A stretch of 32,000 nt of DNA. It comes from Desulfatiglandales bacterium (GTDB lineage Bacteria > Desulfobacterota > DSM-4660 > Desulfatiglandales > Desulfatiglandaceae). The translations under genes were made by a program, and so were the position numbers. Within the stretch, counting starts at the first letter, position 1. Every line of letters begins with the position of its first letter. Under the pieces are notes generated by a model, which saw only the letters and a list, made by a program, of their open reading frames with translations, made no database searches and was not told the origin of the DNA. Location: assembly GCA_963666345.1 (NCBI GenBank), contig OY762721.1, positions 3,661,258 through 3,693,257 of the forward strand. Reading direction: 5' to 3'. Shown here piece by piece: positions 6,267 through 25,531 of the stretch.

Positions 6267-6330
6267 ACTTTGATTAAAGCATAGTTACTTCAAAAAAAAT
6301 CGAGAGAACAAAAAATCTAAGGGATTTGGT

Positions 6331-9050: not shown

Positions 9051-9310
9051 AAAGCGTATACGATTTTTGCCGAATGTTTAACTCTTTATGATTTTTAAGC
9101 ATTTCACTTGACCCCTTGACCCCTTGAATCCTATTTGATCACAATTAATCAAATGATGTTCCCTGAAGCTTAACAGAGCAATCCTGGATTATCAAGACCG
9201 GTCGGAAAGAGATACCGATTTGGCATTTTTCCTTTTTGATGGTACATTTATGTCTGATTTTTTTACAGGCTTACGGATCGATCCTTCATACTTCACATCA
9301 GGGGAGGACA

Positions 9311-10510: not shown

Positions 10511-10529
10511 TCGAACGGCGGCAGGCGAG

Positions 10530-11051
10530 TCAGGCATCATGCGCTTTCCCCTTGGATTTTAAGCCCTGTTTGAAACTTTCCCAGAACTCCTTGTCATTGT
10601 CCTGCCACGCAGCCCCGAATCTTCTTTCAAAATAGGATGAAGGCAGTTTCTCCTGCCATTTTCCCCAGGGGTCTTCCCCCTTTTTCTTGGCCTCGATAAT
10701 GTCATTTATAAAAGAGGCGATATCCGCGATCTCATCTTTCGGTATATAGGAGTCTGCACCCTGTTTTATCGATTTTACCAGGTTGTCGGGCGTAAACGCA
10801 TGGGCTGTGAGCATGACGGCCGTTGTGCCTTTACTGTTGCAGATTTCAAGAAGTCGGTAACCGTTGACCCCCATGATATCAAGCACTGCTACGTCGAATT
10901 CCTCTTTTTCAAGCAGTTCCCGCGCCTCCTCAAACGTGGAGGCACTGACCACGTCACACATGAATAAAAGTTCTTCCAGTACCTGCAGAATGTCAGGTTC
11001 ATCATCGACTATCAAGACCCTTTTACCGTCAAGCAAAGCGGTTTCAGACAT
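10530..11051 (-). CDS. Single-receiver-domain response regulator with short non-DNA-binding C-terminal tail
   Basis: RVLIVDDEPDILQVLEELL, FDVAVLDIMG, AVMLTAHAF, GADSYIPKDEI; no recognisable output domain in the last ~55 aa. Confidence 0.85.
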   Translation of the reverse strand: MSETALLDGKRVLIVDDEPDILQVLEELLFMCDVVSASTFEEARELLEKEEFDVAVLDIMGVNGYRLLEICNSKGTTAVMLTAHAFTPDNLVKSIKQGADSYIPKDEIADIASFINDIIEAKKKGEDPWGKWQEKLPSSYFERRFGAAWQDNDKEFWESFKQGLKSKGKAHDA

Positions 11052-11196
11052 GAATTATCCTCCTTTTATAAAATGACGCCCGATCAGTAAACAGTCAAGC
11101 GGTCGACTCAAGAACCTATCACATGATCCGGGAATATTCCACTGAATAGATAAGCAGTCCCATGCCTGATCGTGGATGACGAACCTGTTGCCCGCC

Positions 11197-12144
11197 TTAC
11201 CTCCTTCTTGCAAGTATCCTGTTCATGAGCGCCCCTATCCCCTGGGGCGTCATGTCTTTCGGGGTCAGCTTGAGGAGTATGTCCACAAATGCCCGGGCCG
11301 CCATTGAAAGATACTGCCCCTCCAAAAAGGCGATGCTCACGTCAAGAAATATCCTGCCTCCTTCAAGGGGCACGGTTGAAAGGCTTTTCCCCTTGAGCTC
11401 AAGGGCGACCGCCTCCTTTACCAGAAAGGAGATCCCTTCTCCCCTTTGAACCAGCTGTTTGATAAATTCCGTGTTGCTGGTATCCATGAGTATGTCGGGT
11501 GTGCAGCCGTTTCGAGTGAAAAGCTCGTTTACCAGCCTCCTAGTGCCTGATCCGGTCTCCTTCATGATGACCGGCTCTCTGGCCAGATCCCTTATGGAGA
11601 CGGTCTTTTCTGCGGCCAGCGGGTGATCAGGTGCGAGTATCACGACCAGCTCTTCCTCGCTGAAGGGAATGAAACGGACATCGGGGTTTTCCTCCGCCTT
11701 GGCGATGATGGCCACTTCGTTTTTGAAGTCCAGCAGGCTGTGAATCATGTCAAGGGAGCTTCCCTCATCCAGGTAGATCCTAACCTGAGGGTAGGTTTCA
11801 TGAAAACCGGTAAGAAGATAAGGCATGAAGTAGCGGGCATAGGTCTTTGTCGTTCCAAGCCTCAGGACTCCCCTTTTGAGTTCCTTCATCTCCTCTATCA
11901 GGTGCTCAAGGTCCCTTTCATAATCAAATACCTTTACGGCGTATTCAAAAAGTGTCTTACCCTCGTCCGTAAGATATATGCTGCGGCCCTTTCTCTTAAA
12001 GAGCTTGAAGCTGCAGTGTTCTTCAAGGAGCCTTATCTGGGCGGTAACGGCCGGCTGGGTGATGTATAGACTTTTGGCTGCAAGGGTAAAACTGAGGTGC
12101 CTTGCTGTGTGGTAAAAGACCCTGAGTTGATTGAAATTGATCAT
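11197..12144 (-). CDS. LysR-family transcriptional regulator
   Basis: NFNQLRVFYHTARHLSFTLAAKSLYITQPAVTAQIRLLEEHCSFKLFKRKGRSIYLTDEG, then a substrate-binding-type effector domain; upstream of the aromatic cluster. Confidence 0.93.
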   Translation of the reverse strand: MINFNQLRVFYHTARHLSFTLAAKSLYITQPAVTAQIRLLEEHCSFKLFKRKGRSIYLTDEGKTLFEYAVKVFDYERDLEHLIEEMKELKRGVLRLGTTKTYARYFMPYLLTGFHETYPQVRIYLDEGSSLDMIHSLLDFKNEVAIIAKAEENPDVRFIPFSEEELVVILAPDHPLAAEKTVSIRDLAREPVIMKETGSGTRRLVNELFTRNGCTPDILMDTSNTEFIKQLVQRGEGISFLVKEAVALELKGKSLSTVPLEGGRIFLDVSIAFLEGQYLSMAARAFVDILLKLTPKDMTPQGIGALMNRILARRR

Positions 12145-12170
12145 GTGCCTGTCCTTTAAAAATAAAGCCT

Positions 12171-12214
12171 AAGCAAAATTTATGGATCAGGGTGATGCAT
12201 AAGTAAAATTTATG
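12171..12214. promoter_or_regulatory. Candidate LysR operator: direct repeat AAG(C/T)AAAATTTATG spaced exactly 30 bp
   Basis: AAGCAAAATTTATG at 12171-12184 and AAGTAAAATTTATG at 12201-12214, directly upstream of the LysR start at 12144. Confidence 0.45.
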
Positions 12215-12473
12215 TATATCATAAATATTATGAAGTTGACAGACACTTTTCAGTAATAAATTATAAGACTTATTTCCATAACAAGAACCTGGTACCGATC
12301 CCTCCACCAGTCCTGAGACCTTATCAAAAAGGATTCCTCATTAAGCGAAAACGCAGGTCGCTTCCTGAAAGCCTTATCTGAACGTGTTTTTTCTGTCCTG
12401 ACGTAACGGAATTCCCGGCTCTGTGGGCCTCAAAAAAACAGCAGTGCCTTAATGGAACGGGAAAAGTGAGCTG

Positions 12474-12521
12474 AAGTGACTAAAGTGACTAAAGTTGGAA
12501 GTGACTAAAGTGACTAAAGTT
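12474..12521. repeat. Tandem 23-nt perfect direct repeat AAGTGACTAAAGTGACTAAAGTT x2 (2-nt spacer)
   Basis: Copies at 12474-12496 and 12499-12521, each internally built from a 9-nt period (GTGACTAAA). Confidence 0.85.
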
Positions 12522-12830
12522 ATGGAGTCGCTTCGCTCCGCTTTCTTAGAGGTTCCATAGCCCTTTGAATCTGGGTTTTTTAGGCATTGCAAAGTCCGGA
12601 AGAGCAGGGTGTTTATTTTTCCCGTCCAATTGCAGAATGCAGTTTTCCTTAAACGTAAGAACCGGAATCAAGAAAGATAAAAAGAAAAAAACAGGAAAGA
12701 GGAGCCCCTCCACCTGACCCCCCGGCCCCTCAAATCCCTGTCCCCTATTTAAGATTTATTTCCCCGGTTTGGGAGTGCATCGACGCTCCACGCAACCATT
12801 CCAACCAACAACATCACAGGAGGGGGAAAA

Positions 12831-14690
12831 ATGGCAGATCAAAAGGCAGGAAGATTTCCGGATCCTCACGATTTCAAGGTGCCTCCCGGCCTGGAGGGCT
12901 GGGAAGAGATGTATCCATCGCACTATCTTTTTTCAAAGGAGAGGGGGGAATGGGAAAAGCAGCAGTTCTGGTATCAGGACAAGATTCATGCCCCTGAACC
13001 GGTGCCCCCCCTGGACCTGATCTTCCAGGAGGCCTGGCAGATCTCCCTTTCACAGTACACCACAAGGGTGTTCTGCATCCCCCCTGCCCAGGGAATCGCC
13101 CAGAGGATGGTCGGGTGCTACATGTACATCTGTGCCATCGCGCCGCCGCCCGATAAGGTTATCGGAGAAAAGGCGGCCCATTTCGAAAAGCGCGTTTTCT
13201 ACGTGTTCGAGCACTATGACGAACTGTGGGACAAGTGGCTCAACAAATTCAAGGCCCTCGGCAACGAGATGTCCGCGGTTGAGATCCCGGAGCAGATGCC
13301 CAAATTCGTGCCTGAAGATCAGGTGCTTCCCGCGCCCAGGGGCTACTACATATCCTATGACGTGATGGAGGCATTCGACAGGCTCGTAAACATGATGTTC
13401 AAGGGATGGCAGTACCACTTCGAGATGCTTAACCTCACTTATCTTGCCTACCTCATGTTCGGCGACGTATCAAGAAAGCTCTTTCCGGGAATCAGCGAGA
13501 GTGCCATCGGCAAGATGGTGGCAGGCGCCTATGTGTCGATGTTCAGGCCGGAGGAGGAGCTGTGCAGACTCGCAAGGCTAGCCTCTTCATCCCGCGGCGT
13601 TGCGGATATTCTGAAGACCGATATGTCGGTAGGGCAGAAGGTCTCCAAGCTTAACAAGATAACCGACGGCAAACACTGGCTGGAGGAGTTTGAGAAATCA
13701 AAGGACCCCTGGTTCTACGTGTCCTGCGGAAGCGGGTGGCTGCATCATGAGGGAAGCTGGATTACCAACCTTGAAATACCCTACAGCTATATAAAGGGCT
13801 ATGTGGAAAGCCTTGAAAGGGGCGAGAAGATCGAGCGCTCCCTTGACCAGATAGACAAAGAAAGGGACCAGATAGTAGAAGAGTACCGCAAACTGATCAA
13901 AACCGATGAAGACCGAAAATCGTTTGACGACGCCTACAAGACCATCCGGACCATATACCGGTACGCGGAGGATCATCTGTTCTGGGTGGAGCACTGGTTT
14001 CACACCATCTGGTATGAAAAGATAAGGAGATTCGGAAGCCTTCTCAAAGGAAACGGAATGCTCAACGAGGTGGACGATATATTCATGTTCACCCGCTATG
14101 AGATCCCGGAGATGCTGACCGAGCTTTCCACCGGCTGGGCCCTGGGAGTGGACATACCTTTAAGGGGCGATTTTTACAAGGCAAAGGCAAAAAAGAGGAG
14201 GAAGATCCTGGATGCTGCATCCGAATGGGCACCCACCCCCGCGCTCGGCGTACCACCCGAGGAGGTGGCGGAACCCTTCACGATCATGCTCTGGGGCGTG
14301 ACGACCGATAAGGTAAAGGAATGGCTCAAGGGTGTGGAGGTCCCGAAAGGAACTGAGATCAGCGAGATAAAGGGATTTGCGGCTTCGGCAGGGGCCGCGG
14401 AAGGTCCGGCCAGGGTGCTCAAGCTCTTAAAGGAGATCGTCGACATAAAACCGGGTGAGATTATCGTGTGCCCGTCGACCAATCCCTCGTGGGCGCCGGT
14501 GTTTACCAAGATCAAGGCGGCTGTCACGGACATCGGCGGGCTTACAAGTCATGCGGCCATAGTCTGCCGGGAATACGGAGTACCATCGGTCACGGGAACG
14601 GGAGTGGCCACATCCGTGATTAAAACCGGAGACATAATCAGGGTCGACGGAGACACAGGGCTGGTAACCATAGTGAAGCGGGCGCAGTGA
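12831..14690 (+). CDS. ppsA: Phenylphosphate synthase alpha-like subunit (PEP-synthase central/phosphohistidine domain protein, ~619 aa)
   Basis: Novel N-terminal region (FPDPHDFKVPPGLEGWEEMYPSHYLFS..SLSQYTTRVFCIPPAQG) fused to a PEP-utilising mobile domain, GGLTSHAAIVCREYGVPSV, with the phosphorylatable His codon at 14550-14552; immediately followed by a PEPS N-terminal-domain protein. Confidence 0.75.
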   Translation: MADQKAGRFPDPHDFKVPPGLEGWEEMYPSHYLFSKERGEWEKQQFWYQDKIHAPEPVPPLDLIFQEAWQISLSQYTTRVFCIPPAQGIAQRMVGCYMYICAIAPPPDKVIGEKAAHFEKRVFYVFEHYDELWDKWLNKFKALGNEMSAVEIPEQMPKFVPEDQVLPAPRGYYISYDVMEAFDRLVNMMFKGWQYHFEMLNLTYLAYLMFGDVSRKLFPGISESAIGKMVAGAYVSMFRPEEELCRLARLASSSRGVADILKTDMSVGQKVSKLNKITDGKHWLEEFEKSKDPWFYVSCGSGWLHHEGSWITNLEIPYSYIKGYVESLERGEKIERSLDQIDKERDQIVEEYRKLIKTDEDRKSFDDAYKTIRTIYRYAEDHLFWVEHWFHTIWYEKIRRFGSLLKGNGMLNEVDDIFMFTRYEIPEMLTELSTGWALGVDIPLRGDFYKAKAKKRRKILDAASEWAPTPALGVPPEEVAEPFTIMLWGVTTDKVKEWLKGVEVPKGTEISEIKGFAASAGAAEGPARVLKLLKEIVDIKPGEIIVCPSTNPSWAPVFTKIKAAVTDIGGLTSHAAIVCREYGVPSVTGTGVATSVIKTGDIIRVDGDTGLVTIVKRAQ

Positions 14691-14778
14691 TACGAATTTA
14701 ACCGGAAAGCCCCTTTCCCATTCAGGTCACTTTTTCGCTTCCTGTCTGTTGAAAGGGGCTTCTAGGTGAAAAGAGATC

Positions 14779-15849
14779 ATGGAACATATACTCGGTTTTG
14801 AAAGACTTGACAGGGGTTCCCTCGCCCTTGTGGGGGGAAAGAACGCGAGCCTGGGTGAGATGATAAAAAGCGGGGTCCGCGTGCCTCCCGGTTTTGCCGT
14901 TACAACCGACAGTTATCTTGGTTTTATAACAAAGACCGGTATAAAGGAGAAGATCTATGAGGCCCTCGCAGGTCTTGATCCTGAGGATGTGGAATCGCTC
15001 GACCGGGCAAGCGGCAAGGCGCGCGGGCTTATCATGGATTCATCCATGACAAGGGAGGGGAGGGATGCAATCGCAGGCGGTTATAAAACACTGTGCCGGG
15101 ATTGCAATAAAGATTACCTGCCTGTGGCGGTCAGATCAAGCGCAACGGCCGAGGACCTCCCGACCGCCAGTTTCGCCGGCCAGCAGGATACATTCCTCTG
15201 GGTCCTTGGGGCGGATAAGGTCATAGGCAATGTCCAGGCCTGCTGGGCAAGCCTGTTTACCCCCCGTGCCGTCAGCTACAGGATTAGGAACAAGTTTTCC
15301 CATGAAAAGGTACTCATAAGCGTCGGTGTCCAGAAGATGGTCAATTCGAGGAGCGCCGGTGTCATGTTTACCCTCAATCCGACCAACGGGGACCCTTCAA
15401 AGGTGGTCATAGAGGCAAGCTGGGGGCTGGGCGAGACGGTTGTTTCAGGTTCGGTTAATCCGGACAAGTTCGTGGTGGACAAGGTGATGCTGGAGATCAA
15501 TGAAAGGGACATATCCAAAAAGCATATAGAATGCCTGTATGACCCGGATGAAAAAAAGGTGGTCAACATCGAGGTGGAGCCGGAAAGACAGCAGAAATGC
15601 TGCCTGGAGGGCCGTGAGGTAAGGGAACTGGCCAGACTGGCAAAGGAAATAGAGGTCCATTACGGATGCCCCATGGACATCGAGTGGGCCATAGAAGAAG
15701 ACGCGTCCTTTCCCGAGAACATATTTATCGTTCAGGCACGGCCCGAGACCGTCTGGAGCCGGAAGGAGTCAAAGCCCGTCATAGGGGCGAAGAGCGGCTA
15801 TCAGCTTTTGATGGAAAAGGCGATGACAAGGATAAAGCTGAGGACATGA
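14779..15849 (+). CDS. ppsB: Phenylphosphate synthase beta-like subunit (PEP/pyruvate-binding ATP-grasp-type domain protein, ~356 aa)
   Basis: LVGGKNASLGEMIKSGVRVPPGFAVTTDSY, VAVRSSATAEDLPTASFAGQQDTFLWV, IEASWGLGETVVSGSVNPDKFVV, MDIEWAIE; ends before the swivel and C-terminal PEPS domains. Confidence 0.78.
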   Translation: MEHILGFERLDRGSLALVGGKNASLGEMIKSGVRVPPGFAVTTDSYLGFITKTGIKEKIYEALAGLDPEDVESLDRASGKARGLIMDSSMTREGRDAIAGGYKTLCRDCNKDYLPVAVRSSATAEDLPTASFAGQQDTFLWVLGADKVIGNVQACWASLFTPRAVSYRIRNKFSHEKVLISVGVQKMVNSRSAGVMFTLNPTNGDPSKVVIEASWGLGETVVSGSVNPDKFVVDKVMLEINERDISKKHIECLYDPDEKKVVNIEVEPERQQKCCLEGREVRELARLAKEIEVHYGCPMDIEWAIEEDASFPENIFIVQARPETVWSRKESKPVIGAKSGYQLLMEKAMTRIKLRT

Positions 15850-16013
15850 ATGAGATAAAATCCCCTTGTCCGATTAAGCTGGAGAAGAACCTTTTCAATA
15901 ATCCGGCATTCAGGGAAAACCAGGATAGAAGGATTTTGCATTTAAGGGTCATCTCCAAAAGAGTTGATTTAAATGAAGGAGTCTTTGCTCTTCTTATTCC
16001 TCGCTCAGTCCCA

Positions 16014-16032
16014 CCCTTCGACAAGCTCAGGG
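16014..16032. repeat. REP-like motif CCCTTCGACAAGCTCAGGG
   Basis: Exact motif in the intergenic region between ppsB-like and the four-helix-bundle remnant; it resembles a short extragenic repeat recalled from other environmental genomes. Confidence 0.4.
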
Positions 16033-16079
16033 CGGGTTCCCGGAAGGGGCCAAGGGTTCTAGGTATGGGAGGAAAACGA

Positions 16080-16273
16080 GTATAGAGTATGTGAGATTTC
16101 TCTATATTGCATATGGTTCAGTCTGTGAATCGGAAATTCGGGCCATGATATCAGCTGAATTGGGTTATTTGAAAGAAGTAAGGCTTCAGGAATTAAGGGG
16201 GAAAATCGGGGATGTCGAGACAATGCTCAAAGCGTTGATCAAATCCCCGGAAAGAAAACCCTCGAATCCTTGA
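16080..16273 (+). pseudogene. Truncated four-helix-bundle (S23/IVP-like) protein remnant, second copy, inverted relative to 8701-9050
   Basis: GRKTSIEYVRFLYIAYGSVCESEIRAMISAELGYLKEVRLQELRGKIGDVETMLKALIKSPE; homology to the other copy stops abruptly upstream (no IPSNIAEG). Confidence 0.75.
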
Positions 16274-16294
16274 CTCCTGGAACCCTTGGACCCT

Positions 16295-16316
16295 TTCTCC
16301 CAACTAATTGGGAGAA
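16295..16316. repeat. 22-nt palindrome TTCTCCCAA-CTAA-TTGGGAGAA
   Basis: 9-bp perfect stem with 4-nt loop. A near copy (one G-T type mismatch) is at 8696-8717 beside the other four-helix-bundle remnant. Confidence 0.85.
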
Positions 16317-16359
16317 GAACCGCATTTTTAACCGGCAGAAAGGGAGGTAAACAGGATCG

Positions 16360-17760
16360 ATGAAAGACATGAGAGATTTTATCCAAGAGGCGGAAGCCCG
16401 GGGCCTGCTCCACAGGATAAAGGCCGAGGTGGACTGGAACCTTGAGCTGTCCCATATCGCAAAACTTAACGAGGAAAACCAGGGACCGGCACTGCTTTTC
16501 GAAAACGTCAAGGATTACGACTCCCCAGTCATCACGAGCGTGTGCACCACCACCGAAAGACTTGCCCTCATAATGGGCATGCCGGGGGAATCGTCCTTGG
16601 TGGACATCATGAGGATGTGGGTGGAGAAAAATGAAGACAGGATTCCCCCCAGATATGTGGACAATGCGCCGTGCAAGGAAAACATCATGATGGGTGATGA
16701 TGTGGATCTTTTCAGGTTTCCCGCGCCCAAGTTTTATCCGATGGACGGCGGGCGTTTTTTCGGTACCGCCCATTTCGTGGTCACAAAAGACCCTGATACC
16801 GGGTGGGTCAACCTTGGCACATACAGGCTCCAGCTCCTGGACAAAAATCATCTCGGAACCCAGTTCATAAAGGGAAAGCATGCGGATATCATGCTCAAGA
16901 AATACCAGAAGCTGAAGGAGCCGATGCCTGTTGCGGTAGTGGTGGGATGCGACCCGATACTCTTTCTGATGGGGGCCTCAAGGCTCTCGGCCTTTGAAAG
17001 TGAATATGATTTCGCAGGCTCCATAAGGGGTGAGGCAATAGATGTAATAAAGGCTGAGACAAACGACCTGCCGGTTCCGGCCACGGCCGAGATCGTGGTG
17101 GAAGGGGAGGTGGACGCGGACACATTCATGGACGAAGGCCCGTTCGGCGAGTACACAGGCTACTATTCAGGTGTGGGGACCGACCCGAGAAATTTCATAG
17201 ACGTAAAGTGCGTGACCCACAGGACAAATCCCGTGTTCTGGTCCACCACGGTGGGACGCGCGGTGACGGACACCCACATGACCATGGCGCTTACCTACGG
17301 CGCGACCCTGTGGCAGCAGCTTGTCGCCATGAAAATCCCCGGCATAAAGGCGGTCTACTGCCCGCCCGAGGGCTCGGGACGCTTTCTTGCCATAATTTCC
17401 ATGACCCAGATGTATCCGGGACACGCGGATCAGGTCCTTACCGCCGCCATATCGACCGAGATGGGCGCCTACGGCCTCAAGACCGTTATCGTGGTGGATG
17501 ATGATATCGACCCGTGGGATATATCAAGGGTCATGTATGCGCTCAGCTTCAGGTTTCAGCCTAACAGGAGTCAGGTAATAAAAAGAGGGAGGTCCACCCC
17601 GCTTGATCCTTCTCTTCCCTTAAACGCAAGGGAGATCACAGGCAGGCTCCTGCTGGACGCCACCATACCGTATGACTGGAAGGAAAAGCCGATCCCTATT
17701 GAGCTTGATCCGGAGCTGGTGGAAAAGATAAAGGGCCGATGGTCTGAACTGGGGTTTTAG
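16360..17760 (+). CDS. UbiD-family prenyl-FMN-dependent (de)carboxylase (phenylphosphate carboxylase / hydroxybenzoate decarboxylase-like)
   Basis: ALLFENVKDYDSPVITS, VVVGCDPILFLMGASRL, VPATAEIVVEGEVD, MDEGPFGEYTGYYS, IYCPPEG-like, TVIVVDDDIDPWD, RGRSTPLDPS. Confidence 0.92.
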   Translation: MKDMRDFIQEAEARGLLHRIKAEVDWNLELSHIAKLNEENQGPALLFENVKDYDSPVITSVCTTTERLALIMGMPGESSLVDIMRMWVEKNEDRIPPRYVDNAPCKENIMMGDDVDLFRFPAPKFYPMDGGRFFGTAHFVVTKDPDTGWVNLGTYRLQLLDKNHLGTQFIKGKHADIMLKKYQKLKEPMPVAVVVGCDPILFLMGASRLSAFESEYDFAGSIRGEAIDVIKAETNDLPVPATAEIVVEGEVDADTFMDEGPFGEYTGYYSGVGTDPRNFIDVKCVTHRTNPVFWSTTVGRAVTDTHMTMALTYGATLWQQLVAMKIPGIKAVYCPPEGSGRFLAIISMTQMYPGHADQVLTAAISTEMGAYGLKTVIVVDDDIDPWDISRVMYALSFRFQPNRSQVIKRGRSTPLDPSLPLNAREITGRLLLDATIPYDWKEKPIPIELDPELVEKIKGRWSELGF

Positions 17761-17777
17761 ACAGGGGGAGAATCGAT

Positions 17778-19439
17778 ATGAAGCCTATCCGCTATGATCC
17801 GGAAGAGATAGAGAAAAATTTGAGGGAGGGTTTCTGGGATAAGACCATCCTGCCCGACTTTTGGGAGAAAAACGCCAGGCTGTGGCCTGACAGGGAGGCC
17901 CTTGTCGATTCCCTCGGATCCAGGCTGACCTGGGCCGAGGCCGCGCAGAGGATCGACAGGATCGCGTTCGGGCTTATAAAGGAGGCGGGTGTTAAGAGGG
18001 ATGACAGGCTCATGGTGCAGCTTCCTAACTGCGTGGAGCAGGTCCTTGTTCGCCTTGCCTGTGAAAAGGCGGGGGTCCTTTCCATACCCGAGATGACCAC
18101 CTTCAGGCAGACGGAGCTTGCGGACATCGCAAAAAGGACGGACGCGGCGGGCATGGTAATTGCCAGGAGCTACAGAAACTTCGACCACCATGAAATGGCA
18201 AGGGAACTTCAGGCTCAGCTGCCGGGACTCAGGCACATCATAGTGGCGGGGGACGACGTGCCTCAAGGCTGCATCTCGTTGAACGAGATCATGGCTCACC
18301 CATATGAGAAGGAGTTCGACATCCTGGAGCTTATCGCCAGGAAGCTTGACGCGGTGGAAGAGGTGGGCTTTCTTATCACGACCACCGGCACCACAGGCCT
18401 TCCGAAGCTTATCGAGCACAGGATAGCGGCGCGCGAGATCTGGACCGCAAGATCGCATGTGAAAAACTGGAAGCTCGGCCCTGATGACTGCGTGATCGCC
18501 ATCGCCCCGCTCGCAGGGGCCGCCGGGGGCACGCCCGCCTATGTTACGGCACCGGTGGGGGGAGCCAAAATCGCCCTTGAATACCAGTACAGGGGAGAGG
18601 AAACGCTCGCCTTCATGGAACAGGAGCGGGTCACGGTGATCGCCCTTGTGCCGACCCAGCTCGCAAGGCTGCTGGAACTTCCCACCGGCAAATATGACCT
18701 TTCATCTTTAAGGATAATAAAGACCGCCGGAGGGTACCTGCCGCCCCCGCTTGCAAAGGAGGCCCAGGAGAGGTTCAACTGCCCCATCCTCGGGACATAC
18801 GGCACGCAGGATACAGGTTCCATATCAGGGGTGCCGATCGACGCACCCGAGGACCTGAGAAACTTCACCGTTGGAAGGCTTCATCCGGGAATAGAGATAA
18901 AGATACTGGATGATGAGGGAAACCGGGTTGAAAAAGGGGGCGTGGGCACCCTATGGTTCAAGGGGCCGGGAAATTCGATCGGTTATTACAGGGATATAGA
19001 TAAAACCATGAACGAGGCCTTTGACAGGGACGGTTTTGCCACGCCCGGAGACCTTGTGGAGCTTATGGATGACGGTTATATCAAGATCATGGGCAGGAAG
19101 AAGAACATCATCATAAGGGGCGGGCAGAACATATATCCAAGGGAGATAGAGGACTATCTGCTGGCGCACGAAAAGGTCACTAACGCGGCCGTCGTTCCCA
19201 TGCCTGATCCTCAGATGGGTGAGAGGGCGTGCGCCTTTGTCACGGTCAAAAAGGGAGAGATGTTCCAATTCGAGGAGATGATCGCATATCTCAAGGAAAA
19301 GAAGATCGCTCCCTTTAAGCTGCCTGAAAGGCTCGAGGTACTCGACGCCCTTCCCCTGGTCGGGGAAAGCGGCAAGATAAACAACAAGGAAATGGTCAGG
19401 ATCATAACCGAGAAGCTTAAGGAGGAGGGGAAGATCTAA
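17778..19439 (+). CDS. AMP-binding acyl-adenylate/CoA ligase, 2,3-dihydroxybenzoate-AMP ligase (EntE)-like
   Basis: FLITTTGTTGLPKLIEHR, ILGTYGTQDTGSISG, TPGDLVELMDDGYIKIMGRKKNIIIRGGQNIYPREIEDYL, VGESGKINNKEMVRII; the N-terminal FWDKTILPDFWEKNARLWPDREALVD resembles EntE/DhbE. Confidence 0.88.
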   Translation: MKPIRYDPEEIEKNLREGFWDKTILPDFWEKNARLWPDREALVDSLGSRLTWAEAAQRIDRIAFGLIKEAGVKRDDRLMVQLPNCVEQVLVRLACEKAGVLSIPEMTTFRQTELADIAKRTDAAGMVIARSYRNFDHHEMARELQAQLPGLRHIIVAGDDVPQGCISLNEIMAHPYEKEFDILELIARKLDAVEEVGFLITTTGTTGLPKLIEHRIAAREIWTARSHVKNWKLGPDDCVIAIAPLAGAAGGTPAYVTAPVGGAKIALEYQYRGEETLAFMEQERVTVIALVPTQLARLLELPTGKYDLSSLRIIKTAGGYLPPPLAKEAQERFNCPILGTYGTQDTGSISGVPIDAPEDLRNFTVGRLHPGIEIKILDDEGNRVEKGGVGTLWFKGPGNSIGYYRDIDKTMNEAFDRDGFATPGDLVELMDDGYIKIMGRKKNIIIRGGQNIYPREIEDYLLAHEKVTNAAVVPMPDPQMGERACAFVTVKKGEMFQFEEMIAYLKEKKIAPFKLPERLEVLDALPLVGESGKINNKEMVRIITEKLKEEGKI

Positions 19440-19655
19440 CGGCCTCCCCGGTTCGGGAATATAGCCGTGGTGTAGGGTTATATGTTATAGGTTATTTGAA
19501 AATGAGTGAACAGAAGCCTTGTCTTCGGCTGCGTACTCTAGTTTTCCGGCAATCTTTCTAACCAATAACGAACAACCAGATGCCTAACCAGTGTGCCATT
19601 TTAAGGAAACGTGGGCAAACGAGTGGTTGCTCCATGCCAGGAAGGAATCCCCCCC

Positions 19656-20252
19656 ATGACCCATGACGGCAAAAGGCCCCTGATCCTCTTTGTATGCTGC
19701 GGAAACAGGGAAAGGAGCGTGATAGCGGAAAACCTTTTTAAAAAGATGCTGAAAAAGGGATATCCTGATTTATCAGACCGGGTGGATGCGGCCTCAGCCG
19801 GCATATTCCCCAGGTCATATTTAGAGCATGCAGGGGAAAACGGGGTCTTTTTCGAAGAACCTTTTTTTTCAAAAAAGGCCAATACCTATGCCGTGGATTA
19901 CCTCCTGAAAAAGGGGATAGACGTAGCATCATACAGGTCAAGGCGGATTAACTCAGGTCTTGTCACAGATGCCCTTCTCATACTTGCCGTAGATCGGGTG
20001 ATAAGGGATGAGATCCTTTTCTTTTATCCGGAGGTCCAAGGCAGGGTCCATACCCTCAGGGAGTTCGTGTTCGGCCCGGAAGGGGACCTCGATATAGGTG
20101 ATCCCATGAAACTGCCCGTTGTTGATAAGGACACCGGCGCCTGGATATGGCCTGACGAATACCCCGTGAGGTATATAAAGGAGATCGAGGAGAGCCTTGA
20201 AAAGGGAATGGTCAAGATAGTGGCTTACATAATGAGCGAGGGGATGGATTAG
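19656..20252 (+). CDS. Low-molecular-weight protein tyrosine phosphatase-like protein
   Basis: LILFVCCGNRERSVIAENLF (V-C-x-G-N-x-x-R-S P-loop), AASAGIF, late acidic DP (GDPMKLP). ATG 19656 preferred over upstream GTG 19611. Confidence 0.78.
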   Translation: MTHDGKRPLILFVCCGNRERSVIAENLFKKMLKKGYPDLSDRVDAASAGIFPRSYLEHAGENGVFFEEPFFSKKANTYAVDYLLKKGIDVASYRSRRINSGLVTDALLILAVDRVIRDEILFFYPEVQGRVHTLREFVFGPEGDLDIGDPMKLPVVDKDTGAWIWPDEYPVRYIKEIEESLEKGMVKIVAYIMSEGMD

Positions 20253-20253
20253 A

Positions 20254-21492
20254 TTGAATAGAACAAAGGGTGCGATCATAGTTCTGGTAATGGCTGAGGA
20301 AAAATGGGTGGAGGCGAATTTTTTCCGTGCTCAAATTACCTCTCTCGGCCACAGGGCCGAGATCCTTGATATGGGCCTTACCGGAGGGCCTGCCGGGCCC
20401 TGCGCTATCGGACGGGAGGAGGTGATAGCGGCAGGCGGCACAGGCGTGGACGAGGCCTCTCTTATAACGGACAGGGGCAAGAGGATGCCCCTTATGATAA
20501 AGGGGGGGAGAAAAAAGGTAAAAGAGCTTTACGAACAGGGAATGCTCACAGGGGTCGTGAGCCTTGGGGGGACCACGGGGACCCAGATGGGGACCTCCAT
20601 CATGAAGGCGCTTCCATTCGGCGTTCCCAAGCTCGCGGTGTCAAGCACGGCATCGCTTAAGGGGTTCGCCTCAAGATACCTCGGTACATCGGATGTCTCG
20701 CTCATGCACACGGTGGTCGAGATCGCGGGGCTTAACCGGTTCATGAAAAACGCGCTTGCACGCGCGGCAGGGGCCGTGTGCGGCATGGTGGAGGGGGGGC
20801 TCAGGGAGCCTGTCGCGCCGGAACAGGGGGGTGTGAGTCCGGTTGTAGCCATGACCCACTTCGGGCCGTGCGAACATTGCGCGGTAAGGGTTCGAAATCT
20901 ACTTGAGGAGCGCGGTTACCAGGTGGTGGGTTTTTCCGCTGCCGGTATCGGGGATCGGGCCATGGAGGAGATAATCGAATCGGGCGGCGTCTTTTCTGCG
21001 GTCATAGATCTTGCCACGGGCGGGGTGGGTGAGGAACTGCTGGGATTTGCCAGGGCAGCGGGGGCCTCAAGGCTTGAGGCGGCGGGAAAAAAGGGGATAC
21101 CGCAGGTGATTGCCACAAGCGGGGTCAATTTCGGCTCCCCCTGGAAGTACAGGTACAAGCCTGAATATGAGTCAAGAAAAAAAATTGAGTATGACAGAGC
21201 CCGCACCTTTATAAGGCTCTCGCAAGACGAGTTGGTCCGGGTGGCGACCGTCATGGCGGAAAAGTTGAACCGCGCAGCGGGTCCGGTGAGGGTGGTAATC
21301 CCGCTTGGCGGGTGGTCATCCGTTGATAAGAAGGGAAGCTTCTTTTATGATGGTGAGGCGGATCAGGTATTTGTCGAGACGCTGGAAAGGGAATTGCGGG
21401 ACGATATCGAGGTCAGGGAAGTGGACGCGGACCTTGAGACGGATGAATTCGCAAAGGTTATCGTGGATTCGTTTCTGGAAATTATTTCGTAG
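20254..21492 (+). CDS. Tm-1-like ATP-binding domain / UPF0261 family protein (copy 2, divergent N-terminus)
   Basis: MLTGVVSLGGTTGTQMGTSIMKALPFGVPKLAVSSTASLKG, VRVVIPLGGWSSVDKKGSFFYD; TTG start one base after the previous stop. Confidence 0.85.
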   Translation: MNRTKGAIIVLVMAEEKWVEANFFRAQITSLGHRAEILDMGLTGGPAGPCAIGREEVIAAGGTGVDEASLITDRGKRMPLMIKGGRKKVKELYEQGMLTGVVSLGGTTGTQMGTSIMKALPFGVPKLAVSSTASLKGFASRYLGTSDVSLMHTVVEIAGLNRFMKNALARAAGAVCGMVEGGLREPVAPEQGGVSPVVAMTHFGPCEHCAVRVRNLLEERGYQVVGFSAAGIGDRAMEEIIESGGVFSAVIDLATGGVGEELLGFARAAGASRLEAAGKKGIPQVIATSGVNFGSPWKYRYKPEYESRKKIEYDRARTFIRLSQDELVRVATVMAEKLNRAAGPVRVVIPLGGWSSVDKKGSFFYDGEADQVFVETLERELRDDIEVREVDADLETDEFAKVIVDSFLEIIS

Positions 21493-21537
21493 AGAGAATC
21501 AGGTGCCGGTTGCCTGATAAACGCGCGGGGGCCTTAC

Positions 21538-21921
21538 ATGGAATACAGGTTCATGACGCATGAGGGGTGCTATGATCTTGTGGCGAACGCAAGACTGGTG
21601 GGAGACGATCTGCTGGTTGCCATATGGGGCGGAGACAGGCCCCATATCGGCGCTGTATCCATGGCCCAGCCCAGGGCAAGCCTCAGGGACCCTTCAAAGC
21701 TGAGTGCTACTGCTTCCGTGTTCACGTATGTGGGGCACAAGGAGGACATTCTCGCAAAACCCGCTTCAGAGACCCTGGCCTCCGCCCTGAACAAGAAGGT
21801 GGTGGTAACGGCAGGTATCCACTGGGATGATATGGAAGAAAAGGGCATTAAAAGGGTGATAAAAAACTGTGAGATTCTGATCGGGATGATTGTAAAGGAG
21901 TTTTCATCTTCAAAAAGCTGA
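21538..21921 (+). CDS. Small LpdD-like prenylated-flavin chaperone domain protein
   Basis: GDDLLVAIWGGDRPHIGAVSMAQPRASLRDPSKLSATASVFTYVGHKEDILAKPASETLASALNKKVVVTAGIHWDDM; directly upstream of ubiX in a ubiD-containing cluster. Confidence 0.72.
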   Translation: MEYRFMTHEGCYDLVANARLVGDDLLVAIWGGDRPHIGAVSMAQPRASLRDPSKLSATASVFTYVGHKEDILAKPASETLASALNKKVVVTAGIHWDDMEEKGIKRVIKNCEILIGMIVKEFSSSKS

Positions 21922-21950
21922 CTCTGTCAGGCGTGGGGGATGGTTCTAAA

Positions 21951-22523
21951 ATGAAAAAAAGACTCATTATCGCGATAACCGGCGCAAGCGGTGTGATTTA
22001 CGGTGTGAGGATGCTCGAACTGATAAGGGAACACGGCTTTGAGACGCATCTTATAATATCAGAGGCGGGCAAGAAGAATATCGAGATCGAGACAGGCTTT
22101 AAGCTCAGGGATATAAAGGCGCTTGCCGATTACAGCCATGAAAACATGGACGTGGGGGCCCCGCTTGCAAGCGGCTCGTTTCTGACGGGGGGTATGGTGG
22201 TGGTGCCCTGTACCATCAAGACCCTGTCAGGGATTACCAATTCCTACAACGACAACCTGATCGTGAGGGCGGCAGACGTCACGTTAAAGGAGGGGCGCAA
22301 GCTGGTGCTGGTTGTAAGGGAGACCCCTCTTCACAAGGGGCATCTGAGACTCATGACCATGGCGGCCGATGTGGGCGCCCACATACTTCCCCCGGTCCCA
22401 TCCTTTTATAACAAGCCTGAAACCATCGACGACATAATCAATCAGACCATAGGAAAGATCTTCGACTACCTGGGCGTGGAGCACGATCTGTTTGCCCGCT
22501 GGGGAAGATATGACTCATGCTGA
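21951..22523 (+). CDS. ubiX: UbiX-family flavin prenyltransferase
   Basis: KKRLIIAITGASGVIYGVRMLELIREHG, APLASGSFLTGGMVVVPCTIKTLSGI, LVVRETPLHKGHLRLM. Confidence 0.95.
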   Translation: MKKRLIIAITGASGVIYGVRMLELIREHGFETHLIISEAGKKNIEIETGFKLRDIKALADYSHENMDVGAPLASGSFLTGGMVVVPCTIKTLSGITNSYNDNLIVRAADVTLKEGRKLVLVVRETPLHKGHLRLMTMAADVGAHILPPVPSFYNKPETIDDIINQTIGKIFDYLGVEHDLFARWGRYDSC

Positions 22524-22537
22524 ATAAATGCTGATAG

Positions 22538-22849
22538 TCATAAAAACAGACTTGCAATGGATGGGACCCGCTCGGCAATTTTGACCGCTATTTGACCGAG
22601 CTTTTCTATCTGCGCCTTGAGTTGTGCCTGAGACAGGTTGACCCTTGAGGCCTCCTTTACAACGGTGATGAGTTCATCATATTTTTCAAGGTCCGTGGTA
22701 TCCGGCGTGATTGTGTCCACCTCGGCACGCGAGAGACCTTCCAGTTCGTTAAGCTGATCCTTGTATATCCCCTTAAATACCTCCCGTCCCTTTTCAAGGG
22801 TTTCTTCAAGGTCCGCCTCAAATCCTTCAAGATCAAAATCATCCGACAT
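22538..22849 (-). CDS. Hypothetical small acidic helical protein
   Basis: 103 aa, highly charged, 4 nt downstream of the next minus-strand gene, so likely co-transcribed. Confidence 0.6.
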   Translation of the reverse strand: MSDDFDLEGFEADLEETLEKGREVFKGIYKDQLNELEGLSRAEVDTITPDTTDLEKYDELITVVKEASRVNLSQAQLKAQIEKLGQIAVKIAERVPSIASLFL

Positions 22850-22852
22850 CTC

Positions 22853-23602
22853 TTATCCCTCCTTATTGCCTTTGCCGATATTATCCTTAAGTTCGTTTAT
22901 TGCCGACTTTAGATCAATGGCAAACTCCTCCGCCTTTTTGATCTTGTCATCGGCCTTCTCGGCCGTCTCAACAAGGGTTCCGATCCTCTCGGATGCCCGG
23001 GCCAGCGTGTCGCCGATATCCTTTCCGAGGTCTCGTTCAACCCCGATCTTATCCAGCAGTTCTGCCTGTGTCTCATGCACCTTTGCAACAGAGGAAAGAT
23101 GACCGGTCACAATCGAATTGGCATAATGAATCTGCTGGTAGGCCCGGTCTATGGAGCCTGTCACCTCTTTTTCCTGCGCCTTGAGCGGGTCGAGCAGCTC
23201 ACTGCGCATCGCCTCCACATCTTGTCTGATCTTGCCCACCATTATAGCCATGCCCTTTAGGACATTTTCCTGAAGTTTCGGGGAGGCATCCGGCTTGAAT
23301 GCAGCGTTTATCGCAAGAAGTAGAGACCTCTTCCTTTCCTTTTCCTTCGAACTTCTTGCCAGTTCCCACTGGCGGTTCATGGCGTTTCCGATCTGAAAGG
23401 GTGCGTAAACGTCGTCTATGAAGCGGTTCACGTCACGCCTCATCCTTGTGAAAAATAACTGTGCAAGCTCTCGATGTGCCTTGTAAACCACCGTAAGGTC
23501 CCGGCCGACCGTTGCTGAAAGCTCAACCGACTCCTTGGGAACCTGGGCGCATGAGCAGAAAATGAGGAAGGATATAAAAATGAATATCGACCTGCGTGGC
23601 AT
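22853..23602 (-). CDS. Predicted lipoprotein with extended coiled-coil character
   Basis: MPRRSIFIFISFLIFCSCAQVPKES (lipobox-like FCSC), followed by heptad-rich helical sequence to a KDIGDTLARASERIGTLVETAEK tail. Confidence 0.7.
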   Translation of the reverse strand: MPRRSIFIFISFLIFCSCAQVPKESVELSATVGRDLTVVYKAHRELAQLFFTRMRRDVNRFIDDVYAPFQIGNAMNRQWELARSSKEKERKRSLLLAINAAFKPDASPKLQENVLKGMAIMVGKIRQDVEAMRSELLDPLKAQEKEVTGSIDRAYQQIHYANSIVTGHLSSVAKVHETQAELLDKIGVERDLGKDIGDTLARASERIGTLVETAEKADDKIKKAEEFAIDLKSAINELKDNIGKGNKEG

Positions 23603-23668
23603 CTCAATTCCTCCTTTTGTGGTGCTTCAAAAGTTGTGTTCAACTGTTAGGCATGATCGGGTAAAATC

Positions 23669-24079
23669 CTATTTGTGCGCGAATGCCCATGAAAAAGAGA
23701 TGCCGAATTCTTCCTTTCCGCCCACCCTGACCGCCGTTAGAAAGGCGGAGGCCAACCACTTTTTCATGCCCGCCTTGGTGACAAGGTCGCTGTAGAACTT
23801 GGCGTCCACACGCTTTTTTTCAGGGTCATTGCCCGGGTCCCCGTAGGCGTAACAGAGGTCATGGGGCAGGCAGCATTTATAGGTGATATCCTTCCAGTCA
23901 CAGCCGGTAAAAAGACCCATTACCCTGTCGGGAAGCATGGAGCAGCCATCAAAGGTCCAGTCTTTGTAGTCGTCCGGTTTCGATTCGATCCTGTCAACCA
24001 GGTAATCGAGATCAAAATGGCGGCACAGCTCAAGTGCCGCGCGAGCGTTCATGACCTCTCCTATTTCAGGCAGATCCAT
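23669..24079 (-). CDS. Phospholipase A2-like domain protein
   Basis: FDGCSMLPDRVMGLFTGCDWKDITYKCCLPHDLCYAYGDPGN matches the PLA2 CCxxHDxC active-site pattern (codons 23852-23875). No clear signal peptide. Confidence 0.7.
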   Translation of the reverse strand: MDLPEIGEVMNARAALELCRHFDLDYLVDRIESKPDDYKDWTFDGCSMLPDRVMGLFTGCDWKDITYKCCLPHDLCYAYGDPGNDPEKKRVDAKFYSDLVTKAGMKKWLASAFLTAVRVGGKEEFGISFSWAFAHK

Positions 24080-24095
24080 TTTCCCTCCTCTTGTT

Positions 24096-24277
24096 TCAAT
24101 AGCTTTTCAGCATGTCCGTTACCAGAACCAGGTTTGCCCTGGCAGCCATCTGAAATCGGTAACGGTCTGTCTTTTCAAACCCTGTTTCAGACTCAAGGTG
24201 GCGGCTTTCATTATCCCTGCTCGCTGCGGTCTGTTTGCAATGGCGTATGTCACATAAAAGTGAAAGTCCTTTTCCAT
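24096..24277 (-). pseudogene. Frameshifted small ORF, possible remnant of a DUF6765-like protein
   Basis: Minus strand starts MEKDFHFYVTYAIANRPQRAG then continues in a second frame as NESRHLESETGFEKTDRYRFQMAARANLVLVTDMLKSY*. The 182-nt span is not a multiple of 3. Confidence 0.35.
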
Positions 24278-24304
24278 CTCCAGCTCATTTCCGCCTCAGG
24301 GCCT

Positions 24305-25531
24305 TTATATGGTGTGAAGACTGTCCTTTGCCTTTTTAAGCCTTTCTATGGCAAGGCTTCCACTTATGATGCAGTATGCGTTTTCAAGATACGCGGCATT
24401 AAGCCCGGTTGTCTCGGCAAGCCTTCCAAGCCTTTCCTCTTGTCCCAGGATCTTGAAACCGAGGATGGTCCTTACCCCTGCCGCCCTCAGCTTTGCCGCG
24501 TCCGAGCCGAACTGGAGGCAGAGCCTTCCCTGAAGCATCCAGTCGACAAGTTCCCTCGGCTTGAACGGGGTGTTGAGTATCAGCTCAATGAGGCTTGCCT
24601 TTACAAGGTTCTGCACGTTGTCGATCCCCTGCTCAAAGAACCTCTCCTTGTGGTAGGAGGTTATGCCCTCGAGCAGGTCGAGGGGAAGCCTTGAGGCCCT
24701 CTGCTCCGGCCTGCTTGCCGAGAATTTGAAGCGCTCCGCCATGTAGGTAAGGGCGCGCTGGGGGAAAAAGCCTATAAGAAACGAGATCACAGGGAGCATA
24801 TCCGTCAATGTATCGTCAGGCACCAGGTCCACCCTGATTTCGCCCGACATGAGCTCACCTGATGGTAGGGCCGAGATAAAGTAGTAGAATATGAGCGAGA
24901 CAAAGGTGCTCAGCACCATCCTGACACCCACCCCGTAATAGGCGGCAGGAGGAAGATCTATGGTGATAAGGCGTCTCAGGATGTAGCGTATCGACCATAT
25001 GTAGGCGCCGAGGAATGCTATGAGCATGGAAAGAAGCGCCGGCGAACAGGTAAGATCCGATCCGTCATGCTCGAGCACGAGCTTCGGCACGGAAAGGAGC
25101 CTTTTCCCTCCCTCGCAGAACATGAGGCAGAAGGCCATTAGGCTGAATATGGTCACAAACAGGAGGGGCAGGGCATAGTCCCACTGGCTGTACCTTCTGT
25201 CCGACACGATCAGGGTATGGGCATCTTCAATGTCCACGTTCTTAAGATTCTCTATTATCCTTTCGTGCTCGATCTCTTTTCTTGGAAGTCGAAGTGTGCG
25301 GTATGATACGAATGTAAAGGGTAGAAAAGAGATGAGAAGGACAATTCCCGCGTAGAAATACCAGCTCTCGGTAAAGGCCGCCACATTGGATGTCTTGACG
25401 TTGAGATAAACGATTAAAACAAGGGTTGCAAGGGTGAGCCCGAGCAGAAAGGCGAATGTCTTCCCACGCCTTTTTATGATCCCGGGCCGGTCTTTTTCCT
25501 TTTTCTGGCTCTCTTCAGGTAAGCTGTCCAT
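24305..25531 (-). CDS. Uncharacterised multi-spanning membrane protein with cytosolic helical C-terminus
   Basis: 408 aa with hydrophobic segments (FAFLLGLTLATLVLIVYL, YFYAGIVLLISFLPFTFV, YALPLLFVTIFSLMAFCLMF, LLSMLIAFLGAYIWSI, VLSTFVSLIFYYFISAL) then DLLEGITSYHKERFFEQGIDNVQNLVKA.. and a helix-hairpin-helix-like LRAAGVRTILGFKIL. Confidence 0.75.
   Translation of the reverse strand: MDSLPEESQKKEKDRPGIIKRRGKTFAFLLGLTLATLVLIVYLNVKTSNVAAFTESWYFYAGIVLLISFLPFTFVSYRTLRLPRKEIEHERIIENLKNVDIEDAHTLIVSDRRYSQWDYALPLLFVTIFSLMAFCLMFCEGGKRLLSVPKLVLEHDGSDLTCSPALLSMLIAFLGAYIWSIRYILRRLITIDLPPAAYYGVGVRMVLSTFVSLIFYYFISALPSGELMSGEIRVDLVPDDTLTDMLPVISFLIGFFPQRALTYMAERFKFSASRPEQRASRLPLDLLEGITSYHKERFFEQGIDNVQNLVKASLIELILNTPFKPRELVDWMLQGRLCLQFGSDAAKLRAAGVRTILGFKILGQEERLGRLAETTGLNAAYLENAYCIISGSLAIERLKKAKDSLHTI

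Follow-up and report, generated by a model that had tools for sequence, protein, structure and literature searches.

Can phenol be activated and carboxylated without oxygen by the products of a gene cluster that encodes a split dikinase and only one UbiD-family (de)carboxylase? The question is raised by a DNA stretch of 32,000 nucleotides from a Desulfatiglandales bacterium (GenBank assembly GCA_963666345.1, contig OY762721.1, positions 3,661,258 to 3,693,257), hereafter the window, by which the whole stretch analyzed is meant. The gene set examined, at 12831-22523, comprises eight open reading frames (ORFs), all on the + strand, for a PpsA-like and a PpsB-like dikinase subunit, a PpcB-type UbiD, an EntE-like ligase, a protein resembling low-molecular-weight protein tyrosine phosphatases (LMW-PTP), a UPF0261 protein (MarK/Tm-1 family), an LpdD-like protein and the flavin prenyltransferase UbiX. 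A sequence-only reading of the same DNA had listed these eight genes on one strand, and the list is borne out: every gene is found where it was placed and is matched to its family, with E-values from 1e-15 to 1e-259 that exclude chance. We propose that the cluster is probably a module of the Desulfatiglans type for the oxygen-independent activation of phenol or of a phenolic compound very close to it. It is a further member of a type that has already been described and not a new system.

The split dikinase and the single UbiD

The first gene of the set (12831-14690, + strand) encodes a PpsA-like protein of 619 amino acids and 70.8 kDa that is matched from end to end by NF006153 (862 bits, cutoff 578); its residues 539-610 form a PEP-utilizers swivel domain. 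After a gap of 88 nt follows the gene for a 356-amino-acid, PpsB-like ATP-grasp subunit (14779-15849, + strand; PPDK_N, 397 bits). The PpsA-like protein is 42.5% identical to PpsA of Azoarcus sp. KH32C over 614 of its 619 amino acids and 40.4% identical to a CreH-like cresol kinase of Rhodococcus, while the corresponding values for the PpsB-like protein are 50.7% (Azoarcus PpsB) and 50.0% (Rhodococcus CreI-like protein). The earlier comparison with the alpha/beta phenylphosphate synthase of Thauera is therefore upheld by homology along the full length of both subunits. The swivel motif T566-D-I-G-G-L-T-S-H574 is invariant in 16 homologues and fits the pattern T/SxxGGxxxH; two residues before the phospho-carrier His stands a Thr, where HpeH has a Met. 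PpsAB, CreHI (4-cresol) and HpeHI (hydroxyphenylethanones) constitute a dikinase subfamily with about 45% mutual identity, whose characterized members take several phenols, and PpsA, CreH and HpeH are fold-level homologues of rifampin phosphotransferase and have the T/SxxGGxxxH motif in common (PMC12167813). Grouping with rifampicin phosphotransferases, which had been named as a refutation of the phenylphosphate synthase assignment, loses its force, because the characterized phenol dikinases are themselves such homologues. Judged by their sequences, the two genes belong to this two-component small-molecule dikinase family. Within it, the PpsA-like protein falls in an isolated clade: among sequences clustered at the 50% level, a single representative of it is found, at 80% identity, and full-length relatives other than this one do not exceed 45%. 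A neighbor-joining tree places this clade beside that of Azoarcus PpsA and away from CreH, with star-like deep branches; the tree carries no support values and is given little weight. The AlphaFold2 model of the PpsA-like protein, built from a shallow alignment, is poor (pLDDT 54).

The UbiD gene (16360-17760, + strand) encodes 466 amino acids with UbiD N, core and C domains. Its product passes the equivalog model for PpcB (TIGR02724, 502 bits, cutoff 469) and fails those for the alpha subunit PpcA (TIGR02723, 213 bits against a cutoff of 565), for VdcC (333 bits against 650) and for UbiD proper. It is 47.6% identical to Azoarcus PpcB and 32.9% to PpcA and is thus a protein of the PpcB type. 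The active-site residues N151, R156, H174, E215, E259 and E264 are all present, in a spacing that we take to be that of the residues of Fdc1 that bind prenylated flavin mononucleotide (prFMN) and metal and form the Glu-Arg-Glu set. At the positions of His174 and Glu215, Azoarcus PpcB (L092, 17703-19124) has Arg and Asp, and both columns presumably map to the metal/prFMN-phosphate site of UbiD. Retention of this pair might be related to operation without a PpcA partner. In tblastn searches with the Azoarcus proteins as queries, no homologues of PpcA, PpcG, PpcD (HAD) or PpsC (CBS) were found in the window, nor was a HAD domain found in the scanned window ORFs, which agrees with the earlier statement that one UbiD is present and that HAD and CBS subunits are missing. 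A second UbiD gene was likewise not found in the window; a copy elsewhere in the genome is possible.

The cofactor genes stand at the end of the set. UbiX (21933-22523, + strand; an ORF of 196 amino acids) scores 255 bits on NF004685 (cutoff 188) and is 53.6% identical to Azoarcus UbiX; gene calls on identical contigs place its start at 21951, giving 190 amino acids. The small LpdD-like protein (21538-21921, + strand; PF21758, 122 bits) matches LpdD in the PDB (8PZH) with an E-value of 1.3e-5 and has the GGxxPHIG motif in common with it. In this alignment, H36 and H67 stand opposite the functional H35 and H61 of LpdD, and D63 opposite E69. LpdD is a chaperone that binds the reduced cofactor prFMNH2 and helps to activate UbiD enzymes (PMC10865409). 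UbiX would thus make prFMNH2 for the window UbiD, and the LpdD-like protein, to judge from its motif and aligned residues, would act as the prFMNH2 chaperone. UbiX, UbiD and LpdD also occur together in the gallate decarboxylase LpdBCD of Lactiplantibacillus plantarum, which differs in working in the decarboxylating direction without a dikinase or ligase, and whose LpdD is only distantly similar to the window protein.

The classical cluster for comparison, found by a tblastn search of plasmids, lies on plasmid pAZKH of Azoarcus sp. KH32C in the order sigma-54 regulator, PpsA, PpsB, CBS protein, ppcB, ppcD, ppcA, ppcG, a further UbiD, UbiX, DUF120, NUDIX and PaaK-type ligase. The pps-ppc systems of Thauera, Aromatoleum and Azoarcus and the window cluster share homologues of PpsA, PpsB, PpcB and UbiX and a course from phosphorylation through carboxylation to activation with coenzyme A (CoA). 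In addition to PpcA, PpcG, PpcD and the CBS subunit, however, the window cluster is devoid of the DUF120, NUDIX and sigma-54 regulator genes of Azoarcus and has an EntE-class ligase in place of the PaaK-type one. It also has UPF0261, LpdD-like, LMW-PTP-like, LysR and receiver-domain proteins that the Azoarcus cluster does not have.

Counterparts in Desulfatiglans anilini and in related loci

The closest described system is the phenol (phe) cluster of Desulfatiglans anilini, H567DRAFT_02049-02059 (Xie and Muller, 2018, PMC6114531; Xie et al., 2020, PMC7500099). Its annotation comprises a PaaK-type ligase, a 175-amino-acid response regulator (02050), PpsB, PpsA, three 4-hydroxybenzoyl-CoA reductase subunits, UbiX, UPF0261, a "2,3-dihydroxybenzoate-AMP ligase" (02058) and PpcB (PMC6114531; PMC7500099). 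The lengths of the counterparts in D. anilini and in the window are nearly equal: 615 and 619 amino acids for PpsA, 358 and 356 for PpsB, 468 and 466 for PpcB, 552 and 553 for the ligase, 403 and 412 for UPF0261, 193 and 196 for UbiX and 175 and 173 for the receiver protein. Both clusters have the same families, a single PpcB and the local order PpcB-ligase-UPF0261-UbiX, and the phe cluster, too, is without PpcG, PpcD and PpsC. They differ in that D. anilini carries the 4-hydroxybenzoyl-CoA reductase genes and the PaaK-type ligase inside its cluster, that neither an LMW-PTP nor an LpdD gene has been reported for it and that its pps part is ordered differently. Geobacter, too, is reported to have only a ppcB homologue. 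Consequently, the parts list, which the sequence-only reading had presented as non-canonical, is not a novelty of the window. The identities reported between D. anilini and Thauera proteins (42%, 38% and 49%) are about the same as those between the window and Azoarcus.

What the phe cluster adds is expression. In proteomes from growth on 4-aminobenzoate, aniline, benzoate and phenol, the phe proteins peak on phenol (PMC6114531; PMC7500099). The UPF0261 protein has abundances of 0, 5e7, 5e7 and 2.5e9 on these four substrates, respectively, an increase of about 50-fold; ligase 02058 rises from about 8e8 on the three other substrates to 1.26e10 on phenol (about 15-19-fold), PpcB from about 1e9 to 1.8e10 (about 15-20-fold) and regulator 02050 from about 1e9 to 6e9 (about 6-fold). 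For PpsA and PpsB, the levels on phenol exceed those on the three other substrates 4- to 10-fold. On phenol, ligase 02058 is about 20-fold more abundant than the PaaK-type ligase. When supplied with phenol and ATP, extracts of D. anilini formed phenylphosphate. The authors remarked that ppc-gamma is missing, called the role of the ligase unknown, raised the problem of the ATP cost and proposed that the carboxylase mechanism is different in sulfate and iron reducers.

These data bear directly on the window ligase (17778-19439, + strand; 553 amino acids with AMP-binding and AMP-binding_C domains), whose gene begins 17 nt after the UbiD stop codon. The ligase scores under every NCBIfam cutoff, including those of TIGR02275 for 2,3-dihydroxybenzoate (DHB)-AMP ligase (285 bits against 724) and NF008192 (258 bits against 783). 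Its top PDB match is the salicylate-AMP ligase 5WM2 (E-value of 1e-71), with DhbE, EntE and DHB-AMP ligases also among the best, and its homologues carry the database name "non-ribosomal peptide synthetase component E". The sequence-only reading had taken the EntE likeness as a sign that the product could be a dihydroxybenzoate and catechol as plausible a substrate as phenol. In D. anilini, however, ligases with like annotation track benzoate (01083) or aniline/4-aminobenzoate (03870), and 02058 is induced by phenol. Because the name "DHB-AMP ligase" is common to ligases that track benzoate and phenol, it is silent on the hydroxylation pattern, and therefore the argument for catechol falls away. 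Based on the gene coupling and the D. anilini proteomics, the window enzyme would be a 4-hydroxybenzoate-CoA ligase. Phenol is the likeliest substrate of the cluster, and catechol is without specific support.

Conservation was followed by scanning one genome per species, which yielded 368 PpsA relatives, of which the best 80 (78-85% identity) were examined. All 80 are from metagenome-assembled genomes (MAGs) of this lineage, and the sources of the related sequences are Desulfatiglandales or Desulfobacterota MAGs. D. anilini is not among the best 80 of the 368 PpsA loci, nor among the top 120 matches for PpsA or the ligase. Thirty-three loci extend at least 10.5 kb from the PpsA start and were counted as complete; PpsB is present in 32 of them, UbiD and UPF0261 in 30 each, UbiX in 29, the receiver protein in 24, the ligase in 22, LpdD in 20 and the LMW-PTP-like protein in two. 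The receiver homologue is usually found between UbiD and the ligase, and a LysR homologue occupies the same position as in the window in 54 of the 80 loci. Beyond these families, no other widely recurrent family was found in the related loci, and tblastn with the Azoarcus queries did not find homologues of PpcD, PpcG or PpsC in about 90 of them. The related clusters have a modular make-up. PpsA varies little (73-85% identity), while PpcB falls into two subtypes about 80% and about 53-58% identical to that of the window and the ligase into two at about 80% and about 45%; as ten loci illustrate, these subtypes and those of UPF0261 occur in differing combinations.

UPF0261 proteins, phosphatases and flanking DNA

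Two UPF0261 genes accompany the cluster, both with PF06792 and PF23189. The in-cluster protein of 412 amino acids (20254-21492, + strand) belongs to a subtype that we call "AEEKW" and matches Tm-1 in the PDB with an E-value of 1.4e-50 and MarK (9MPY) with 4.6e-47; the upstream copy (9320-10510, + strand, the start at 9320 agreeing with gene calls on identical contigs) matches MarK with 4.4e-43. MarK (Saro_1862) of Novosphingobium aromaticivorans is an ADP-forming kinase for phenolic hydroxyls, the first activity assigned to UPF0261, in 2025. It favors phenols with carbonyl substituents and does not phosphorylate guaiacol, and its ATP-site motif D14-T15-K16 is more than 90% conserved among MarK homologues. 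The upstream copy has D-S-K at this site and keeps His219. Gly195 is kept in both window copies, and His304 is replaced by Tyr in both. The window proteins are thus similar to MarK in their two-domain family, in the retention of Lys16 and Gly195 and in an aromatic-catabolic context; they differ in that MarK serves a biotin carboxylase pathway on acetovanillone, whereas the window subtypes are known from sequence alone. Across the related clusters there are five UPF0261 subtypes, and that of the upstream copy sits beyond LysR in about 25 loci. A link of UPF0261 to anaerobic phenol clusters was not found in the literature searched. A role for these proteins in regenerating ATP from phenylphosphate was considered and rejected on our own thermodynamic estimate; hydrolysis of an aryl phosphate is less exergonic than that of ATP, and the same energy must drive the carboxylation too.

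The LMW-PTP-like gene has a start at 19656 according to gene calls on identical contigs (19656-20252, + strand, 198 amino acids; the ORF is open from 19611), and its stop codon is separated by 1 nt from the start of the in-cluster UPF0261 gene. Its product scores 56 bits on LMWPc (cutoff 23), with an intact P-loop, C14-CGNRE-R20-S21, and a general acid, Asp149 (I-G-D149-P), in a motif conserved in homologues. Since its only cysteines, C14 and C15, lie in the P-loop and the distal cysteines of the ArsC type are absent, it is not an ArsC-type reductase. The AlphaFold2 model (pLDDT 89) has as its top Foldseek match YwlE (4PIC; E-value of 4.8e-10, target TM 0.80), and further LMW-PTPs are matched as well. 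The family is small, with 125 sequences among 5.8 billion, and in all six contigs sampled the gene is flanked by a gene for a ligase of the type with 76-84% identity on one side and by a UPF0261 gene of the AEEKW subtype on the other; in L088 and L089 the distance to the UPF0261 start is 1 nt, as in the window. The LMW-PTP-like gene is hence a new detail of the cluster, and its family is cluster-specific within the contexts sampled. L088 and L089 carry the block of UbiD, ligase, LMW-PTP-like and UPF0261 genes without an adjacent dikinase; it is adjoined there by ferredoxin-like proteins and by AOR-family oxidoreductases that could be BamB-type components of benzoyl-CoA reductase. HD-domain phosphohydrolases recur in other related loci, upstream of PpsA on the - strand in six and inside the cluster in three, and the HD protein encoded in a Rhodococcus cre-like locus shares 29-33% identity with some of them. 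Besides the LMW-PTP-like proteins, the related clusters thus have a second family of accessory phosphatases. In the pathways of CreHI/CreD (4-cresol) and HpeHI/HpeD (hydroxyphenylethanone), which use the same dikinase family at about 40-50% identity, a dedicated phosphatase strips the aryl phosphate at a later step. These pathways differ from the window cluster in being aerobic, in having a P450 or a biotin carboxylase downstream and no UbiD, and in drawing on other phosphatase families (HD in the Cre-like locus). The sequence-only reading had seen three unrelated proteins in the places of the missing carboxylase subunits. That view is too simple: the LpdD-like protein corresponds to a chaperone, the UPF0261 protein is of the MarK family and the LMW-PTP-like gene is confined to two of the 33 complete loci.

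The conserved unit extends upstream past PpsA to a divergently transcribed LysR-type regulator (11197-12144, - strand; HTH_1 and LysR_substrate), a stand-alone response regulator of 173 amino acids with a receiver domain (10530-11051, - strand; Response_reg) and the second UPF0261 gene. A 260-bp inverted repeat is found by blastn at 8691-8942 and 16062-16321 (88.8% identity over 260 bp). Its left copy encodes a 70-amino-acid 23S_rRNA_IVP protein; the right copy, whose strand is unassigned, holds a truncated version, the ORF 16091-16273, which scores 27 bits on PF05635, under the cutoff. The right copy is an insertion in the spacer between PpsB and UbiD and lies outside the pathway; the spacer is unusually long (510 bp) because of it. 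A 79-amino-acid ORF at 15846-16085 was considered as a gamma-like subunit and rejected; it has no family match and no homologue in related loci, and it probably does not represent a gene. The match between contig L002 and the window begins at 8710 and runs rightwards, so that the left flank of L002 breaks inside the left repeat copy. The cluster region (8000-25000) has a GC content of 49-58%, compared with mostly 39-45% on either side (up to 48% on the right), which is compatible with a horizontally acquired island. In the low-GC block upstream (891-7299) lie genes for a tripartite transporter (TctCBA), an SDR protein, a 3-hydroxyacyl-CoA dehydrogenase and a sulfatase; an arylsulfatase could release phenols. 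Downstream, on the - strand at 22538-25531, lie four ORFs of 103, 249, 136 and 408 amino acids that have homologues only in near-identical contigs and no Pfam match above cutoff or PADLOC match; just beyond them, at about 26100-26754, is a pair of PhdYeFM antitoxin and PIN toxin genes. An Rfam scan of the window gave no match, and a promoter and terminator scan gave nothing informative.

Proposed pathway and alternative explanations

Based on homology to the characterized dikinases, we propose that PpsB would transfer the pyrophosphoryl group of ATP to His574 in PpsA, that the gamma-phosphate would be lost and that the phosphohistidine would then phosphorylate phenol, yielding phenylphosphate, AMP and Pi. 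The single PpcB-type UbiD, with prFMNH2 made by UbiX and delivered by the LpdD-like protein, would add the carboxyl group at the ring position para to the oxygen and release the phosphate, so that 4-hydroxybenzoate is formed, and the ligase would convert it to 4-hydroxybenzoyl-CoA, pulling the carboxylation forward. The most likely stand-ins for the missing HAD delta subunit, gamma subunit and second UbiD are the UPF0261 proteins, while the LMW-PTP-like protein, as an aryl phosphatase, may add to phosphoryl handling in this sub-lineage. Judging from synteny, expression may be controlled by the divergent LysR and the receiver protein. Several points weigh against this proposal. The cluster is tied to D. 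anilini by gene annotation, by the lengths of the proteins, by local order and by proteomics, not by sequence identity. Phenylphosphate carboxylase activity has never been detected in D. anilini extracts, and two refolded PpcB subunits failed to carboxylate phenylphosphate, which makes UPF0261 and, where present, the LMW-PTP-like or HD proteins the obvious additions. The in-cluster UPF0261 protein is without D14 and T15 of MarK, having Glu at both positions (E-E-K), and has Ser for His219, and both features are common to the whole AEEKW subtype. Genes of 4-hydroxybenzoyl-CoA reductase and of the benzoyl-CoA pathway were not found in the window. Finally, the PpsA-like protein, in its isolated clade, is nearly equidistant from Azoarcus PpsA and the CreH-like protein, so that the sequence of the dikinase settles its family and leaves its substrate unfixed.

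That last point gives room to the same chemistry on another substrate, such as catechol, hydroquinone, cresol or aniline, with the ligase activating the matching substituted benzoate. Such a reading, which we consider unlikely but worth keeping in view, gains from the isolation of the PpsA clade, whose identity to Azoarcus PpsA is barely above that to CreH, from the range of phenols taken by the dikinase family, from PasAB, which takes both aniline and phenol, and from the salicylate- and DHB-AMP ligases that are the best solved relatives of the ligase. But the D. anilini set is induced by phenol and not by aniline, 4-aminobenzoate or benzoate; PasA of the aniline type is much shorter (554 amino acids, with His512) and has an identity of only 28% with PpsA of Thauera; the ligase name is uninformative on hydroxylation; and the UbiD passes the PpcB equivalog cutoff. 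A different division of labor, which appears to us quite improbable, would make the UPF0261 proteins the main phenol kinases, converting ATP to ADP at half the ATP cost, with PpsAB as a high-affinity scavenger and the LMW-PTP-like protein draining excess phenylphosphate. The formation of ADP by MarK, the presence of both kinase types in about 25% of the genomes that have an aromatic kinase, the conservation of UPF0261 in the cluster to the same extent as UbiD, the D-S-K and His219 of the upstream copy and the acknowledged puzzle of a four-ATP cost for sulfate reducers all fit it. Against it stand the altered ATP site and Ser219 of the in-cluster copy, the preference of MarK for carbonyl-substituted phenols together with its inactivity on guaiacol, and the abundance and phenol induction of PpsA and PpsB themselves in D. 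anilini.

The remaining alternatives separate the ligase or the UbiD from the dikinase. UbiX, UbiD and LpdD are the parts of a gallate decarboxylase, and the UbiD does score on VdcC, from which a detoxification of phenolic acids of the VdcBCD/LpdBCD type in the decarboxylating direction could be read, with the dikinase and ligase as unrelated neighbors. We regard this as very improbable: the VdcC score is far under its cutoff, whereas the PpcB score is above its own, a VdcD-type small subunit is absent, synteny of the dikinase, UbiD and ligase genes is kept in 22-32 of the 33 complete loci, and in D. anilini phenol induces the counterparts of all three together. It is scarcely credible that the EntE-like ligase belongs to the synthesis of a siderophore with an aryl cap or to another secondary-metabolite pathway, as the name of its homologues and its matches to DhbE, EntE and salicylate-AMP ligases might suggest; it falls far short of the DHB-AMP ligase equivalog cutoff, no genes for an aryl carrier protein, a non-ribosomal peptide synthetase, an isochorismate synthase or an isochorismatase were found among the scanned ORFs of at least 110 amino acids, and its gene is conserved beside those of UbiD and UPF0261. 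A phenol-activating module of the Desulfatiglans type therefore remains the preferred reading. A more specific version of it is tentative and, in our judgment, doubtful: that Desulfatiglandales carboxylate phenylphosphate through a single canonical prFMN-dependent UbiD, with UPF0261 replacing the HAD delta subunit, an EntE-class ligase trapping the product and LMW-PTP-like or HD proteins cleaving the P-O bond in sub-lineages. In a variant of this version, UPF0261 may provide an ADP-forming route to phenylphosphate at a lower ATP cost.

For sulfate and iron reducers, two puzzles are acknowledged: how phenylphosphate is carboxylated with a PpcB homologue alone, and how up to four ATP equivalents are afforded. 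The window settles neither, but the comparison narrows the candidates. UPF0261 (30 of 33 loci) and UbiX (29 of 33) are the steadiest companions of PpsAB and PpcB, with an EntE-class ligase and LpdD as usual members, and the LMW-PTP-like family is a second concrete candidate, beside UPF0261, for a helper in the carboxylation.

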